A stretch of DNA of 64,000 nucleotides, taken from assembly GCA_043814965.1 (NCBI GenBank), contig JBDRJN010000003.1:68564-132563 (forward strand), given 5' to 3'. Shown in pieces: positions 6,087 to 62,092 of this stretch. A program made the translations under genes and the position numbers. The notes under the pieces were generated by a model. It was not told the DNA's origin, ran no database searches, and worked only from the letters and a program-made list of their open reading frames with translations. Source of the stretch: Candidatus Omnitrophota bacterium. GTDB taxonomy: Bacteria > Omnitrophota > Gorgyraeia > Gorgyraeales > Gorgyraeaceae. Numbering within the stretch: position 1 is the first letter of the stretch; each line of letters opens with the position of its first letter.

Positions 6087-6197
6087 AGCTATACCTTTGT
6101 ATGGTACTAAAAGCCTTTGAGGGGAGACTATCTTTATAGTATTATTGTACTACTTTTGCATGATCTAGGCAATAAAAATTTATCCCTCTAAAAAAGG

Positions 6198-6345
6198 TAG
6201 GGGAGCTTTAAAGCTCCCCTACTGTTGTAGACAGGGTTTAGGCGGGAGCGAAAAAGAAAACGGTGTAAAATTTTCACGCTGGGAAAATTTTACGTCCTCG
6301 AAAGCAGTGCTCACGGGCAGCCAAGAGCAACCTTTGCCCTTAAAT
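6198..6345 (-). repeat. composite stem-loop intergenic repeat: GTAGGGGAGC palindrome plus AT-stem hairpin module, inverted copy of the element at 45265-45500
   Basis: Perfect palindrome gtaggggagctttaaagctcccctac (6198-6222). Reverse complement of 6225-6290 reads cgtaaaattttcccagcgtgaaaattttacaccgttttctttttcgctcccgc, near-identical to 45325-45380. Confidence 0.6.
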
Positions 6346-10511: not shown

Positions 10512-10601
10512 TTTTATCCGAGTGACCCTCTTTAAAAATTAAATATTAAAATGTAAAATCATAAAGCCTGTTTTTGAAAAGGCTATTTTGTCGTTCACGC
10601 T
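10512..10601. repeat. AT-rich intergenic element (left-arm motif aaaaattaaatattaaaatgtaaaat), member of the AT-rich inverted-repeat family
   Basis: Motif at 10533-10560 recurs at 13390-13440, 25381-25435 and 28221-28275. Confidence 0.4.
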
Positions 10602-13379: not shown

Positions 13380-13523
13380 TAACCCTCTTAAAAAAATAAA
13401 ATATTAAAAATTAAATATCAAAATTACAGACTAAAATCTAAATATTTTTATTAGTATGCTTTTTATTTTTAAACTTTGATATGTCATTTTTATTTTTACA
13501 CTTTAATTTTTAATATTACAACA
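13380..13523. repeat. AT-rich inverted-repeat intergenic element separating gatA from gatB
   Basis: Left arm 13390-13440 (attaaaaattaaatatcaaaattacagac), right arm 13465-13520 (tttgatatgtcatttttatttttacac); the arms are roughly reverse-complementary and are shared with the elements at 25336-25512 and 28204-28406. Confidence 0.5.
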
Positions 13524-23865: not shown

Positions 23866-23881
23866 AAGATCATCTCGTTAA

Positions 23882-23949
23882 AATTAGGGACACATCCCTT
23901 TTTTATTTACTCTGTTTTTTATTTTAAAAAAAGGGATGTGTCCCTAATT
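23882..23949 (-). terminator. long perfect hairpin immediately after the apt stop (putative intrinsic terminator)
   Basis: aattagggacacatccctttttt ... aaaaaagggatgtgtccctaatt, ~22 bp stem, followed by a short T-run on the coding strand. Confidence 0.5.
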
Positions 23950-24465
23950 TTAATAATTTACCATCGAGTAGACTGGCAGGCCTTTTAGCTTTTCGCGGCC
24001 TTTTAGGTCAGCCAGCTCTATGATAAAGACAACCTCTACTATCTCGCCTTTTAATTTTTTTGCTAGCTCGGTTACAGCACTTGCGGTACCGCCTGTGGCA
24101 AGAAGGTCATCCACTATAATAACCCTGGAGCCTGGTTTAAATGCATCTTCGTGCATCTCTAAGGCGTCTTCTCCATATTCAAGGGAATATGTGGCAGAAA
24201 TAGCCCTGTAAGGAAGCTTGCCCTTCTTTCTTACAGGAACAAATGAAGCTCCTAGCCTATATGCCAGGGCGCCTCCAAAAATAAACCCGCGGGAATCTAT
24301 AGCAAGTATGGCATCTATATTTTTATCCTTATAGCGCTCGGTCAGGATGTCTATGACTTCTTTGAATTTATCGGGATCTCCTATGAGAGTAGTTATGTCC
24401 CTGAATAAAATACCTTTTTTTGGAAAATCCGGAATACTGCGAATATACTTCTTTAAATCATCCAT
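23950..24465 (-). CDS. apt: adenine phosphoribosyltransferase
   Basis: IPDFPKKGILFRDIT...VIIVDDLLATGGTA PRTase motif. Confidence 0.9.
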   Translation of the reverse strand: MDDLKKYIRSIPDFPKKGILFRDITTLIGDPDKFKEVIDILTERYKDKNIDAILAIDSRGFIFGGALAYRLGASFVPVRKKGKLPYRAISATYSLEYGEDALEMHEDAFKPGSRVIIVDDLLATGGTASAVTELAKKLKGEIVEVVFIIELADLKGREKLKGLPVYSMVNY

Positions 24466-25335: not shown

Positions 25336-25512
25336 ATTTATTTCCCAACAACTGTTATAGTAATGACTACATTTATTATAATATCAAAAATTAAAATGTA
25401 AAAATAAAAATTATAATTTAAAATTCAAAAAGTAAATTCAGGAATAACTTATATAATTTTACATTTTGATATGTAATTTTAATATTTAATGTTTGCTATT
25501 TAATTTTAAACA
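25336..25512. repeat. AT-rich inverted-repeat intergenic element upstream of the sigma-factor gene
   Basis: Left arm 25381-25435 (atatcaaaaattaaaatgtaaaaataaaaatt...), right arm 25457-25491 (ttttacattttgatatgtaattttaatattt). Confidence 0.5.
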
Positions 25513-28194
25513 CTACTTACTATTTTTTAATGCTGCCTGCGCTGCTGCTAAACGCGCTATAGGAACCCTATAAGGAGAACAGCTTACGTAGTTAAGCCCT
25601 GCTTTACAGCAAAATTCAACACTCTTAGGCTCTCCTCCATGTTCTCCGCAAATGCCGCATTTTAAGGTCTTTCTTGTTTTTCTTCCCAGAGTTACAGCTT
25701 GTTTTACAAGTTGTCCTACCCCCTCTTGATCTATTGTCTGGAAAGGATCGTCAGGAAGTATCTTTTTATTTATATAATCAGGCAAGAAACCCCCTATATC
25801 GTCCCTTGAATACCCGAACGTCATCTGTGTAAGGTCATTTGTGCCAAATGAAAAGAACTCTGCTTTCTCAGCTATCTTATCTGCTATCAGAGCTGCTCTT
25901 GGTATCTCTATCATGGTCCCTACCATATAACTTACCTTCTTGCTTGATCTCCCTATGATAGCATCGGCAGTGTCTCTAACTATATTTTCAAGATAATCAA
26001 ACTCTGCTTTTGTACCTATAAGAGGTATCATGATCTCAGGAAGGACCTTTATGCCTTTTTTAGCCATATTACATGCAGCTTCTACTATAGCGCGTGTCTG
26101 CATAGTACATAACTCAGGATAGGTGATACTGAGCCTGCATCCGCGATGCCCAAGCATAGGGTTCATCTCATGCAGGTTCTTTACCAGGTCCCTGATCTTA
26201 TCAGTGGAGAGTTCCATTCTCTTGGCCATCTCTTCTATGCCGCTTTCATTGTTAGGTAAAAACTCATGTAAGGGCGGGTCCAAAAGCCTTATCGTGACAG
26301 GAAGGCCGTTCATTTCTTTAAAAATACCTTCAAAATCCTTTCTCTGATAAGGAAGAAGCTTTGCCAATGCCTTTTCTCTCTGTTCCTTATCCTGAGCGAG
26401 TATAAATTCTCGTATAGCCCAGATCCTCTCTCCCTCAAAGAACATATGCTCGGTCCTGGTAAGGCCTATGCCTTCAGCGCCAAGACGCCTTGCAGCCAGA
26501 GAATCTTTAGGAGTATCAGAATTAGTACGGATCTTTATCTTTCTATACTTATCTGCCCAGTCCATTATCTGCATGAACATCTTATAGATAGGGTCTTTTT
26601 TTGCTGTCGCGTTATTTTCTACTACTCCTGCGATAACAGGGCTGGAGCTTGACTTTATATCTCCCAGCATCACTTCTCCTAAAGAACCATCCAGGGATAG
26701 GTAGTCACCTTCCTTTACAATAGTACTGCCTACTTCTATTTCTTTTTTAGAGTAGCTTATGTTTAAAGCGCTGCATCCAGCTATACAGCACTTACCCCAG
26801 CCTCTTGCTACAACTGCTGCATGAGAAGTCATGCCTCCGGTAGAGGTCAATATGCCGACTGCTGCATCCATACCTGCCACATCTTCAGGAGAAGTCTCGT
26901 GTCTTACAAGTATGACCTTTTTGCCTTTATCCCTCCACGCTTCAGCATCTTTTGCAGTAAATACTACCTGCCCAGAAGCTGCGCCTGGTCCAGCAGGAAG
27001 GCCTTTGGCTATTACCCTTGCTTCTTTCTTTGCTTTTGGGTCAAATATAGGAAAGAGCAATTGATTAAGCTGATTGCCCTCTATCCTTAAAAGTGCTTCT
27101 TTTGGTGTGATCATCTTTTCCTTTACCATATCATACGCGATCTTTACTGCTGCAACCCCTGTCCTCTTCCCGGTCCTTGTCTGCAGCATGTACAGCTTGC
27201 CTTCTTGTATGGTAAATTCTATGTCCTGCATATCTTTATAATGTTTTTCAAGCCTGGTGCGTATAGCATCCAGTTCTTTATACACTTTTGGCATCTCTTT
27301 TTTAAGGTCACTTATTGGCTCAGGCGTACGTATGCCAGCAACAACATCTTCCCCTTGTGCATTTACCAGGAATTCACCAAAAAACTCTCCACTACCTGTG
27401 GAAGGGTTACGCGTAAAAGCTACTCCAGTAGCTGATGTATCACCCATGTTTCCAAAAACCATTGCCTGCACATTGACCGCTGTACCTAAAAGCCCTGTGA
27501 TCTTATTTATCCTTCTATATACAACAGCTCTCTCTGTGTCCCATGATTTAAAGACAGCATCCACTGCAGCCATGAGCTGCTCTTTTGCATTGTTCGGAAA
27601 ATCTTTCTTAACATGCTCTTTATAGACAGCTTTGTATTCCCCTACGAGTTCCTTTAACTGGCCTGCTGTCAGTTCATTATCCAGTTTGGCGCCGTATTTT
27701 TTCTTGAGAGCGGACATCTTCTCTTCAAAATACTCATGCTCCACTCCCATCACTACATCTCCGAACATATCTATGAACCTTCTATAAGCATCCCAGGCAA
27801 GCCTTTCATTTGATGTCTTCTTTGCCATGCCTTTTACTGAGTCATCATTAAGCCCGAGATTCAAGATCGTATTCATCATGCCAGGCATTGACGCTGCAGC
27901 ACCGCTCCTTACTGATACCAAAAGCGGATTACTAGGGTCCCCTAACTTTGCGCCCATGGCTTTCTCAAGCTTTATGATATTCTTATCTATCTCTTTCTGT
28001 AGATCGCTGGGATATTTTTTTCCGTGTTTGTAATAATGGTCACAGACTGCTGTGGATATGGTAAATCCTGGCGGTACAGGGATATCTATATTTGTCATCT
28101 CTGCTAAATTTGCACCCTTGCCTCCCAAGAGCGATTTCATCTTTGCATTGCCTTCAGCCTTGCCCTCACCAAAGAAGTAAACCAATTTGGCCAT
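25513..28194 (-). CDS. ppdK: pyruvate, phosphate dikinase
   Basis: MAKLVYFFGEG...GGKGANLAEM; catalytic GGMTSHAAVVARG; PEP-utilising C-terminal domain; start chosen at the ATG with an AAAGGA RBS. Confidence 0.95.
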   Translation of the reverse strand: MAKLVYFFGEGKAEGNAKMKSLLGGKGANLAEMTNIDIPVPPGFTISTAVCDHYYKHGKKYPSDLQKEIDKNIIKLEKAMGAKLGDPSNPLLVSVRSGAAASMPGMMNTILNLGLNDDSVKGMAKKTSNERLAWDAYRRFIDMFGDVVMGVEHEYFEEKMSALKKKYGAKLDNELTAGQLKELVGEYKAVYKEHVKKDFPNNAKEQLMAAVDAVFKSWDTERAVVYRRINKITGLLGTAVNVQAMVFGNMGDTSATGVAFTRNPSTGSGEFFGEFLVNAQGEDVVAGIRTPEPISDLKKEMPKVYKELDAIRTRLEKHYKDMQDIEFTIQEGKLYMLQTRTGKRTGVAAVKIAYDMVKEKMITPKEALLRIEGNQLNQLLFPIFDPKAKKEARVIAKGLPAGPGAASGQVVFTAKDAEAWRDKGKKVILVRHETSPEDVAGMDAAVGILTSTGGMTSHAAVVARGWGKCCIAGCSALNISYSKKEIEVGSTIVKEGDYLSLDGSLGEVMLGDIKSSSSPVIAGVVENNATAKKDPIYKMFMQIMDWADKYRKIKIRTNSDTPKDSLAARRLGAEGIGLTRTEHMFFEGERIWAIREFILAQDKEQREKALAKLLPYQRKDFEGIFKEMNGLPVTIRLLDPPLHEFLPNNESGIEEMAKRMELSTDKIRDLVKNLHEMNPMLGHRGCRLSITYPELCTMQTRAIVEAACNMAKKGIKVLPEIMIPLIGTKAEFDYLENIVRDTADAIIGRSSKKVSYMVGTMIEIPRAALIADKIAEKAEFFSFGTNDLTQMTFGYSRDDIGGFLPDYINKKILPDDPFQTIDQEGVGQLVKQAVTLGRKTRKTLKCGICGEHGGEPKSVEFCCKAGLNYVSCSPYRVPIARLAAAQAALKNSK

Positions 28195-28203
28195 TTTAAT
28201 CAT

Positions 28204-28406
28204 TCCTTTCTTGTCTTAAGTTTAAAAATAAAAGTGCAAAAATAAAAACTACATATCTAAATTCAAAATTACAAGTCACGATGAACAAAACCTACTTTAA
28301 AATAGCAAGCCCCTTAACTATTTTACTTCCCTATAACTTCTATTTTTAAATTTTGGTTTGTCATTTTGCATTTTTATTTTTTATTTTTGAATTTACAATG
28401 TACCGA
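28204..28406. repeat. AT-rich inverted-repeat intergenic element upstream of ppdK
   Basis: Left arm 28221-28275 (aaaataaaagtgcaaaaataaaaactacatatctaaattcaaaatt). The reverse complement of the right arm 28341-28400 reads cattgtaaattcaaaaataaaaataaaaatgcaaaatgacaaaccaaaatt. Confidence 0.5.
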
Positions 28407-45264: not shown

Positions 45265-45500
45265 TGCTATGTTATTTAAACGCTTGAGCAGCACATTATA
45301 TAGCTGACAGGGACTCTGTTCGCTCAAGTGAAAATTTCCCCAGCGTGAAAATTTTACTCCGTTTTCTTTTTCGCTCTCGCTTAAACCTTATCTAATGTAG
45401 GGGAGCCTTAAGGCTCCCCTACCAGTATATACGAGGGCTGACCATGCCCGTTCAAAAGATTTAGGCCTCTCAAACAACACCCACAAAGCATGCAACTTCG
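45265..45500 (+). repeat. composite stem-loop intergenic repeat (hairpin, AT-stem hairpin module, GTAGGGGAGC palindrome, gggctgaccatgcccgttcaaaag module)
   Basis: Hairpin 45270-45319; gaaaatttccccagcgtgaaaattttac (45320-45347); ctttttcgctctcgc; palindrome gtaggggagccttaaggctcccctac (45397-45422); gggctgaccatgcccgttcaaaag (45424-45447). Copies occur at 6198-6345 (inverted) and 49307-49462 (partial). Confidence 0.6.
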
Positions 45501-49195: not shown

Positions 49196-49306
49196 CTAGG
49201 CCCCCTTTATCTCTTTTATATTACATCTAAATATATCATAGAGCGCATTTATTGTCAAAGCAATCTAACCAATAAAACTAAAATAATCTCTGCCCAGCAA
49301 AGTATT

Positions 49307-49462
49307 CTTTTTTTCCGACTGGGTAGGTCTACGAAAAGACGCTTAGCTGCCCCGGCGAGGCAGCTTTCGCTCCGTGCTTTTTTTCACTCTCGCCTGGTAA
49401 CTTGCAAGGGCGAACCGTGCCCGTTCAAAAAAGCAAGGCTTTTCTTTAGCCCTACCCAGTCG
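49307..49462 (+). repeat. inverted-repeat-flanked intergenic element (ccgactgggtagg ... cctacccagtcg) carrying modules shared with 45265-45500
   Basis: Terminal inverted repeats at 49307-49321 and 49449-49462; internal hairpin agctgcc-ccggcga-ggcagct; gggcgaaccgtgcccgttcaaaaaag resembles 45424-45447. Confidence 0.55.
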
Positions 49463-49494
49463 AAAAAGATTAATCTTTTATTACAGTTCATGTT

Positions 49495-49659
49495 GTTCTT
49501 AGCTGGTGAGGGGCTGAAAAAAGCATCTTTATTTTGCGCACTAGAATCTCAATGCACTACAATTTAGTATGCCTGTCAAAATAAAACTGAGCGAAGCCCA
49601 CATCTACAAATCACCAACTCTGGCTGAGCGTCTTTTTGAAGGCCTCACCAGCTAAGAAC
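49495..49659 (+). repeat. ~165 bp element with ~30 bp imperfect terminal inverted repeats, copy A (MITE-like, or a structured small RNA with a long closing stem)
   Basis: gttcttagctggtgagg ... cctcaccagctaagaac; the interior aligns almost base-for-base with 61929-62092 (shared ctgaaaaaagc, ttttgcgca, gcctgtcaaaa, aagccca, gcgtctttttgaagg). Confidence 0.6.
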
Positions 49660-49744
49660 ATGCTATGAATAGGATAAAAAAAATCCCGCAAGTGATATGC
49701 TCACTTGCGGGATTTTGTGTAGTACTAGTTTTTCCGAGCAGCTA

Positions 49745-51403
<1,659 letters not shown>

Positions 51404-51828: not shown

Positions 51829-51868
51829 CCACAACGTAGGGGAACCTTAAGGTTCCCCTACGTTGTGG
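51829..51868. repeat. perfect 18 bp-stem palindrome of the GTAGGGGA family (ccacaacgtaggggaacc-ttaa-ggttcccctacgttgtgg)
   Basis: Shares its core with 6198-6222 and 45397-45422; lies between the tonB stop and the groES promoter region. Confidence 0.6.
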
Positions 51869-60946: not shown

Positions 60947-61190
60947 AATAAAAAACCCCGACTCCATAAAGTCGGGGTTAATCCCTCGGTTCTTAACCCT
61001 TGATCCCTCTTCGCCCTCCGCGAATAAATAAAGAAATTACATTGTAAGGTTTTCTGACTTAAGGATCAAACTACTGGTTGCGCCTTCTCACTCCACTTAC
61101 GGCAAGTAATGGCTTATTGCAACTTTCGTCCCCTATTACAGCAGCGGGGCTGCGTTGGATTTTCACCAACTTCCCTTAAACAACATAATA
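60947..61190 (-). ncRNA. cobalamin riboswitch (aptamer ~61070-61190) with an intrinsic-terminator expression platform (60947-60978)
   Basis: The minus strand reads GGGAAgttgGTGAAAATCCaacGCaGCCCCGCTGCTGTAAtaGGGGAcGAAAG...AAGCCAttACtTGCCG (conserved core plus B12 box), then aaccccgact-ttatgg-agtcgggg-tttttt just before the btuF-like ATG. Confidence 0.8.
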
Positions 61191-61264
61191 AAACATTCTA
61201 TTAATCTAATTTATACAATAAATTAATGAACGTGTCAATAAAAATCAAATACAATTTCAAAAGT

Positions 61265-61783: not shown

Positions 61784-61928
61784 GATTTTAATCTTACAGC
61801 GGGTCCTGTCCGCCAATTTACCCCATTAGTGCTCGGCATTAGCCTGCGCGCTAATGGGGTCCCCAAATTGCCGGCCACCCGCCTTAACTTCTTTTATTTA
61901 GTAATCGCTTATCGCTAGCAAGTAACAA

Positions 61929-62092
61929 GTTCTCGATTGGGTAGGCCTGAAAAAAGCCTTTTTGTTTTGCGCAATTAATAAATCCTGCATTACCATAGCG
62001 TCGGCCTGTCAAAACAAAACGGAGCAAAGCCCAACTTTACAAAATACTTACTCTGGCGTAGCGTCTTTTTGAAGGTCTACCCGGTCGAGAAC
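61929..62092 (+). repeat. ~165 bp inverted-repeat-flanked element, copy B (same family as 49495-49659)
   Basis: gttctcgattgggtagg ... cctacccggtcgagaac; the interior is ~80% identical to copy A in the same orientation. Confidence 0.6.

Follow-up and report, generated by a model that had tools for sequence, protein, structure and literature searches.

Diverged copies of a palindromic, non-coding repeat family with a branched, covarying fold in a Candidatus Omnitrophota genome

The sequence analysed here, which we call the window, is a stretch of 64,000 nt from a member of Candidatus Omnitrophota, an uncultured phylum with compact genomes whose non-coding content is, to our knowledge, essentially uncharted. 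The GroEL encoded in the window has 100% identity to a protein of a Candidatus Omnitrophota MAG, and its next-best matches also come from Omnitrophota throughout. Nearly all open reading frames of at least 90 aa in the window (57/58) lie on the minus strand, many of them with 4-nt overlaps; gene co-orientation over positions 1-64000 is extreme and coding density very high. By Pfam scan, 55 of the 58 reading frames belong to housekeeping-type families and 3 have no match, and there is no transposase, integrase, reverse transcriptase, or RAYT gene among them, so any activity that mobilises the elements described below would have to act in trans. The largest intergenic gaps measure 549, 380, 323, 300, and 286 nt. 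The 323-nt gap is accounted for by a cobalamin riboswitch, located between cobO and a btuF-like ABC/TonB cobalamin uptake and salvage operon (the corresponding gap in the related genome L001 is only 50 nt), and the other four hold copies of one repeated element: A and C together in the longest, D in the 380-nt gap, E in the 300-nt gap, and B in the shortest (Table 1). As a preliminary description of this DNA had claimed, A lies downstream of groEL and B upstream of cobO; the gene on the other side of B is a Sm_multidrug_ex gene, whose stop codon is 11 nt away. A and C sit between two transcription units, with the intrinsic terminator of groEL on one side and the promoter of a moxR-type AAA gene, whose sequence is conserved in the relatives L001 and L024, on the other. 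On their sense strands, neither A nor B has a promoter of its own upstream or a terminator downstream.

Table 1. Positions of the element copies and other features in the window, and members of the family in other genomes.
Feature	Position	Strand	Description
Copy A	49495..49659	+	A/B subtype; closing-stem arms 49495-49511 and 49643-49659; interior is a three-way junction
Copy B	61929..62092	+	A/B subtype; closing-stem arms 61929-61945 and 62076-62092; 3 G-T pairs
Copy C	49310..49472	-	C subtype; pattern match; nhmmer E = 5.6e-37; R1 152 bits; fold -72.5 kcal/mol
Copy D	45331..45480	-	D subtype, degenerate; nhmmer E = 0.0019 (weak); R1 E = 0.045 (weak)
Copy E	~6187..6325	+	D subtype, degenerate; shares inverted repeat I1 (64 nt, 91%) with D
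Small REP-like GTAG hairpin, GTAGGGGAGCCTTAAGGCTCCCCTAC / GTAGGGGAGCnTTAAnGCTCCCCTAC	45397..45423 (in D); 6196-6222 (in E); 51836-51861 (alone)		Repeat families D6, I16
groEL gene	49745-51382	-	
groEL intrinsic terminator	49680..49716	-	16-bp stem, then T run; A and C lie downstream
Sigma-70-like promoter of moxR-type AAA gene	49230..49258	-	TTGACA-17-TATATT with TG; upstream of it are A and C
Cobalamin riboswitch	61027-61220	-	89.8 bits, E = 6.8e-21
Other element, ~90 nt	61795-61885	-	Directly upstream of cobO start codon; -50 kcal/mol, z = -6.0
AT-rich, internally palindromic repeats	10512-10601; 13380-13523; 25336-25545; 28204-28406		Families D1-D3, I2-I8
Perfect 27-nt inverted repeat	23878-23904 / 23927-23953		Between two minus-strand genes
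L006, L014, L019			Members; one LacPavin Omnitrophota MAG
L012, L022			Members; MAG SO_2017_LW3_129; L012 is of the A/B subtype
L010			Member; Omnitrophota single-cell genome, SAG AM-311-J02
L008			Member; MAG labelled Planctomycetia
L011			Member; MAG labelled Gammaproteobacteria; 47 bits, outside the covariance-model seed

A and B had been picked out in the preliminary description as collinear segments of about 80% identity, bounded by imperfect inverted repeats. Direct reading of the sequence finds both segments at the positions given there, as well as all five of the strings that had been quoted as common to them, while a stretch quoted as cctaccc... reads tctaccc.... The collinear likeness stands, and the identity is lower than reported: blastn aligns 49511-49645 with 61944-62078 at 76.5% over 136 nt (E = 2.6e-22). 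An inverted-repeat listing and a pair-by-pair comparison bear out the terminal inverted repeats and give each copy a closing stem of 17 bp. In A, GTTCTTAGCTGGTGAGG and CCTCACCAGCTAAGAAC form 17 Watson-Crick pairs, and in B, GTTCTCGATTGGGTAGG and TCTACCCGGTCGAGAAC form 17 pairs, 3 of them G-T. The suspected compensatory changes are also real: between the copies, 5 of the 17 pairs are altered on both sides with pairing kept, 9 are identical, and 3 have one-sided changes, to G-T in B. Read on the plus strand, A folds at -50.5 kcal/mol (z = -4.4 relative to dinucleotide shuffles) and B with a z of -4.6; the minus strands fold well too, which is to be expected of palindromes. A covariance model built from 9 sequences (R1) scores B at 111 bits and A, which was outside its seed, at 79 bits (E = 1e-19). 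The ~165-nt element contains no conserved ORF.

Three further copies in the window, C, D, and E, had been missed. C, more diverged than A and B are, lies head-to-head with A on the opposite strand, their 5' ends 22 nt apart, so that the two subtypes occupy one strand each. The strings AAAAGC, ACNGAGCNAA, and AGCGTCTTTT are common to A, B, and C at fixed spacing, and a pattern made of these three strings matches the window at exactly the places of A, B, and C, with 0 matches in 100 shuffles. D and E share the core GAGAGCGAAAAAGAAAACGGAGT and a hairpin with the loop ACGCTGG, and are 86% identical over 96 nt (blastn). D keeps the 5' half, the core, and the P3 hairpin (AAAATTTTC-ACGCTGG-GGAAATTTT; helices are named below) and has lost the 3' GCGTC segment and the closing stem, while E keeps an apical GTAG hairpin, the core, P3, and the 3' ACGTCCTCGAAAG segment, its 5' half being unrecognisable. 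Both D and E are decayed copies, and the 64 kb thus hold at least three intact copies (A, B, and C) and two decayed ones. The apical position of both D and E is filled by a small REP-like hairpin, which also occurs once alone, upstream of groES and downstream of a TonB-like gene.

The individual minimum-energy folds of 12 copies agree on a three-way junction carried on a long stem, and the RNAalifold consensus gives the same structure. The closing stem, P1, has 17-24 bp and is complementary while its sequence is free except near the junction (GGyAGG/CCUrCC), where the arms of different copies are homologous (GGyAGG). A small internal loop with GA separates P1 from P1b, a conserved A/U helix (GAAAAG/CUUUUC) that leads into the three-way junction. 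P2 consists of an A/U-rich helix (UUUUUCUUC/GAAGAAAAA), an internal loop in which GAGCGGGCAUGG lies opposite GAGCGA, and a variable apical hairpin; C carries GGGCACGG in this internal loop. The stem of the P3 hairpin is GC-rich in one subtype (AGCTGCC-TCGCCGG-GGCAGCT in C) and AAAAUUUUC / AAAATTTTC in another, with the loop nCGCYGG shared; in the A/B subtype, the GGGCAUGG motif is absent and the P3 loop is long and CA-rich. A CGTC occurs within the invariant AGCGTCTTTT, not as a tag at the foot of a hairpin. Across the alignment, the outermost bases are the least conserved columns, differing even between copies in the same genome, and the interior is the most conserved. We also considered a hammerhead-like reading of CUGAGCGAA and rejected it, since its U is not conserved (ACNGAGC) and Rfam gives no match.

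Outside the window, the three-anchor pattern matched 21 loci in a scan of 185,579 species genomes; nine of these were judged by eye to be members, the remainder lying inside genes. The covariance model confirms eight of the nine, in other MAGs that are mostly from Omnitrophota (Table 1); the ninth, L005 from a MAG labelled 'Bacteroidetes', matches the pattern and resembles the element by eye but receives no covariance-model score and is not counted. Because L012 is of the A/B subtype, the subtypes co-occur in at least two genomes. A scan of a metagenome collection yielded a single locus, a duplicate of L012, a scan of viral contigs yielded no member, and a BLAST search for the element among plasmid and phage records (for example, single-strand origins) gave no match. 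Public data thus contain few members of the family. Divergence between copies is as great within one genome as between genomes (A and B are 76% identical), and no near-identical recent copies were seen in the 64-kb window or in the 8-kb loci from other genomes. Known riboregulators adjoin two of the members and appear unrelated to the element: the L012 copy has a ZTP riboswitch downstream of it (L012:900-982), and the L008 composite has a PyrR binding site beside it (L008:4713-4825).

Five of these loci (L006, L008, L014, L019, and L022) are nested composites, in which an inner unit is placed in inverted orientation exactly at the position of the outer unit's apical hairpin. The ~300-nt composite folds into one rod at -147 to -167 kcal/mol, and the outer P1 arms, up to ~300 nt apart, are still paired. 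P1b in the outer units reads AAGG/CCUU, GAGG/CCUC, or GGGG/CCCC, so this helix covaries as well. In the four composites of the L006 type (L006, L014, L019, and L022, from two MAGs), nearly every substitution falls in a stem and is compensated, with junctions and loops identical. L008 has the same architecture with a diverged sequence, which indicates that the composite is old and has been inherited as a whole. The flanks of the L006 and L008 composites are homologous to each other: a third layer outside the outer P1 (L006:1790-2200 and L008:4250-4660) consists of inverted repeats GGTTACA...TGTAACC, and beyond it lie direct repeats with TTTGAC (ACTTTGACTTACTTTC in L006 and ATTTGACAATC in L008). 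We considered a coding reading of the composites, which are stop-free in several frames, and rejected it since the substitutions are compensatory in stems; in a search of the translated composite against 5.8 billion proteins, only one 87-aa fragment matched.

Folding the copies with RNAalifold and looking for covariation had been suggested in the preliminary description, and across 11 members the secondary structure is conserved with strong covariation. In the alignment of these members, 92.4% of cells are standard pairs and 29 of the 45 pairs have double changes, and 0 of 500 shuffles reach any observed measure, to be read with the caveat that the structure was derived from the same sequences and that four of the 11 members are close relatives of each other. 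When the partners are slid by 1-3 columns, pairing falls to 37-63% and double changes to 8-14 pairs; a MAFFT alignment, which is independent of model fitting, gives 90.6% paired cells and 27/45 pairs with double changes, again with 0 of 500 shuffles. The two strands are harder to tell apart. Of the transition mismatches in P1, 14 are G-T when the sense strand is read and 11 when the antisense strand is read, a difference that is not significant, and whole-fold counts of G-U versus A-C are mixed, with the inner-unit sense strand favoured in three composites. The absence of a consistent G-T versus A-C asymmetry gives no support for selection on one RNA strand alone. The sense fold is more stable than the antisense fold in 6 of 11 members, equal in 3, and less stable in 2.

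The elements are missing at the syntenic sites of four related Omnitrophota genomes (GroEL 86-92% identical; loci L001 and L024-L027). Where the window carries B, the Sm_multidrug_ex gene and cobO are 2 nt apart in L001, and in the relatives these genes abut or have another gene between them without a gap. The groEL-moxR spacer is 152 nt long in L024, comprising the terminator and promoter only, compared to 549 nt in the window, and the spacers of L001 and L037 hold other, unrelated hairpin elements. Neither nhmmer nor the covariance model detected a member in ~270 kb of the relatives' sequence. With respect to neighbouring genes, orientation is mixed. All genes next to A, B, and L010 run antisense to the unit, while L012 is sense relative to its flanking genes, with a stop codon on one side and a terminator-like hairpin on the other. 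Only 3-41 nt separate several units from adjoining ORFs.

A and B are diverged copies of an undescribed non-coding, non-autonomous palindromic repeat family in Candidatus Omnitrophota genomes; we found no published description of it, and the top 15 results of literature searches on Omnitrophota palindromic intergenic repeats and on Omnitrophica structured-RNA motifs include no paper on Omnitrophota. What kind of element the family is can be narrowed by comparison with known systems. 6S RNA is encoded by one, rarely two, conserved housekeeping genes per genome that are syntenic among relatives. The preliminary description had favoured a 6S-like RNA, and this reading, or any other single-copy housekeeping sRNA with a long closing stem, is rejected as extremely improbable: the likeness consists only of the length (~165 nt, in a range of ~165-180 nt) and the long closing stem. 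A search of the window and five related loci against Rfam 15, at the gathering score and at E <= 10 (49200-49760), placed no family on the element, 6S RNA (RF00013) included, and the only Rfam matches, all unrelated, were the cobalamin riboswitch in the window and the PyrR and ZTP elements in other loci. Furthermore, 6S RNA is a rod with a closing stem, a large central bubble, and a terminal stem-loop, whereas the element is a three-way junction that occurs in several copies per genome (here three intact and two decayed), in both orientations, without promoter or terminator at A and B, and is absent from the same sites in relatives. The other option that had been offered, a MITE, to be known by many copies with target-site duplications, survives in part, in that there are multiple copies; target-site duplications and conserved transposon termini are not found. 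Like MITEs (e.g., Correia/NEMIS and Nezha), the element is short, non-coding, non-autonomous, flanked by inverted repeats, multi-copy, and polymorphic for insertion, all of which would suit a classical cut-and-paste MITE, that is, one that derives by deletion from an insertion sequence with a DDE transposase and is recognised via its terminal inverted repeats. However, conservation is lowest at the outermost bases and highest in the interior, the reverse of what is seen in transposase-bound repeats, and even copies in the same genome differ by compensated substitutions in their arms. In the flanks of 11 units or composites there is no consistent target-site duplication or target motif, the flanks often extending the palindrome, and no parent or related insertion sequence was identified in the window or in the 8-kb loci of other genomes. 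The missing duplications, the variable termini, and the conserved internal junction argue that this is not a textbook MITE, and we regard the cut-and-paste reading as improbable. Template switching during replication can restore perfect complementarity between the arms of long inverted repeats, and this general process, together with the lack of strand asymmetry, could be taken to mean that a neutral process at the DNA level, and not structural selection, keeps the palindrome complementary, the element being an inert spacer that was duplicated. Such an origin seems very improbable to us, since arms up to ~300 nt apart and four separate internal helices all stay paired, and since the unpaired core hardly varies from one MAG to another, something that requires either purifying selection or a very recent spread.

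More weight should be given to a multi-copy structured non-coding RNA with a cellular role, either as an sRNA or RNP component or as a cis-acting processing or stability element, which we regard as a possible though rather unlikely reading. On this reading, the three-way junction and the loops nCGCYGG, GAGCGGGCAUGG, ACNGAGCGAA, and AGCGUC might form the functional surface, with the stems as scaffolds, a proposal that we hold no more than tentatively. The strong covariation in all helices and the near-invariance of the unpaired junction and loop nucleotides fit such an RNA well, as does P3, whose stems differ completely between subtypes around the same loop. So do the recognition of A (79 bits) and L011 (47 bits) by a covariance model from outside its seed, the sense fold being the more stable one in 6/11 members, and the position of the L012 copy ahead of a terminator-like hairpin, by which it would be co-transcribed in sense. 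Against it, orientation relative to genes is inconsistent, with A, B, and L010 antisense to all of their neighbours; A and C are flanked by a terminator on one side and a promoter on the other, and A and B lack a promoter or terminator of their own; close relatives do without the element, and D and E have decayed; in nested composites, one unit is always antisense on any transcript; and the G-U versus A-C asymmetry is not significant. We instead think it probable, on balance, that the family is a selfish or mobile palindromic repeat of the REPIN, ERIC, or MITE kind. A selfish or once-mobile repeat is favoured over a housekeeping or regulatory RNA because the elements are multi-copy, patchy, found in either orientation and between transcription units, nested, decayed, and accompanied by other palindromic families, several of which occupy the same spacers in this genome and in its relatives. 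We infer mobility from this distribution only. The strongest counter-argument to the repeat reading is the pattern seen in the L006-type composites: stem compensation combined with invariant loops is the hallmark of a functional structured RNA, and is unusual for transposon copies that decay passively.

Among known intergenic palindromic repeats, the closest comparisons are instructive. ERIC (or IRU) sequences are enterobacterial, ~127-bp imperfect palindromes that are intergenic, often within operons, in either orientation and patchy at orthologous sites, with longer variants that arise by insertions at fixed internal positions. The element appears to resemble them in size class, in being a long imperfect palindrome, in its intergenic placement in either orientation, in its patchy presence, and in its longer variants, but there is no sequence similarity and the phylum is another; we know of no three-way-junction core in ERIC, nor of nested inverted units conserved as a composite. 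REP sequences are palindromes of 20-40 nt with an unpaired GTAG or CGTC tag, often arranged as inverted doublets, and their mobilisation by RAYTs has been proposed (PMC3733652). Like REPs and REPINs, for which single-strand recognition is proposed, the elements are intergenic, non-coding, multi-copy hairpins in which pairing is kept by compensatory change and which lack the hallmarks of terminal repeats plus duplication, and a small GTAG-starting hairpin repeat co-exists with them in the window. Unlike REPs, they are ~165 nt long, are built around a three-way junction, have a conserved core that is asymmetric, and carry no unpaired GTAG tag at the foot of the stem. attC sites and the ends of IS200/IS605 elements offer a working analogy, in that structure is kept while stem sequence is free, conserved unpaired bases serve for recognition, and the apical part varies. 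However, attC sites are shorter (57-141 nt), and the element has no R and L boxes (GTTRRRY / RYYYAAC), cassette array, or nearby integrase or TnpA; its ends, GTTCT...AGAAC, have the wrong polarity and composition for attC boxes, and its copies are isolated between core genes. The branched, covarying architecture and the composite with one unit per strand distinguish the family from known intergenic palindromic repeats.

The conservation pattern resembles that of substrates recognised as folded single strands, and for this reason we propose mobilisation in trans through the folded core. Under this proposal, the elements would spread, or would once have spread, as selfish DNA mobilised in trans, with the conserved core, and not the ends, as the presumed cis-acting recognition site. 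The active form would be the folded single strand, most plausibly single-stranded DNA acted on by a structure-specific enzyme, as for REPs and REPINs with RAYTs, IS200/IS605 ends, and attC. A folded-single-strand form would explain why target-site duplications are missing, why the termini are not conserved, and why pairing is under selection. The specific single-stranded-DNA mechanism is drawn by analogy and is, to our mind, doubtful. Alternatively, the elements may belong to a new class of multi-copy structured element, in which the conserved three-way-junction core, carried on hypervariable, covarying stems, would be the recognition module of a new single-strand-specific mobilisation system or of a ribonucleoprotein, and the copies would not be the debris of decaying transposons; we offer this as a conceivable reading that falls well short of probable. 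In the composites, which are conserved across genomes, each strand has one sense unit.

With its invariant junction and loops, freely varying complementary stems, and opposite-strand nesting, the family has an unusual pattern, intermediate between that of a selfish repeat and that of a functional RNA. Should the folded core be recognised by a dedicated enzyme, the family would point to a new structure-specific mobilisation or RNP system. Otherwise, it is a useful marker, and it accounts for the largest intergenic gaps of this genome and, probably, for some breaks in assemblies. A warning comes with it as well, that covariation alone does not turn a repeat into a housekeeping RNA.

Other repeats and hairpins were seen in the spacers of this genome and its relatives. 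In a relative population (L038-L042), several contigs end 117-273 nt past the groEL stop codon, and a longer contig has a GTAG-starting hairpin repeat (GTAGTTGCCCAAT...ATTGGGCAACCTA) at that place past groEL (L037:7400-7500), which suggests that repeats downstream of groEL may break assemblies in this population. The ~90-nt element upstream of cobO in the window, for which Rfam has no match, is 79% identical to L001:12003-12095, which lies upstream of the moxR promoter in that relative, and its stem is compensated between the two places (CCCCATTAG/CTAATGGGG in the window and CCCTGCAAG/CTTGCGGGG in L001). The four gaps with AT-rich, internally palindromic repeats (TTAAAAATTAAARTGTAAAAATAAAAAT ... 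TGTAATTTTGATATTTAAT) adjoin ctpB-like, gatA/gatB, ppdK, and glyS genes. Lastly, the perfect 27-nt inverted repeat (TTAAAATTAGGGACACATCCCTTTTTT / AAAAAAGGGATGTGTCCCTAATTTTAA) looks, from its sequence, like a bidirectional terminator.
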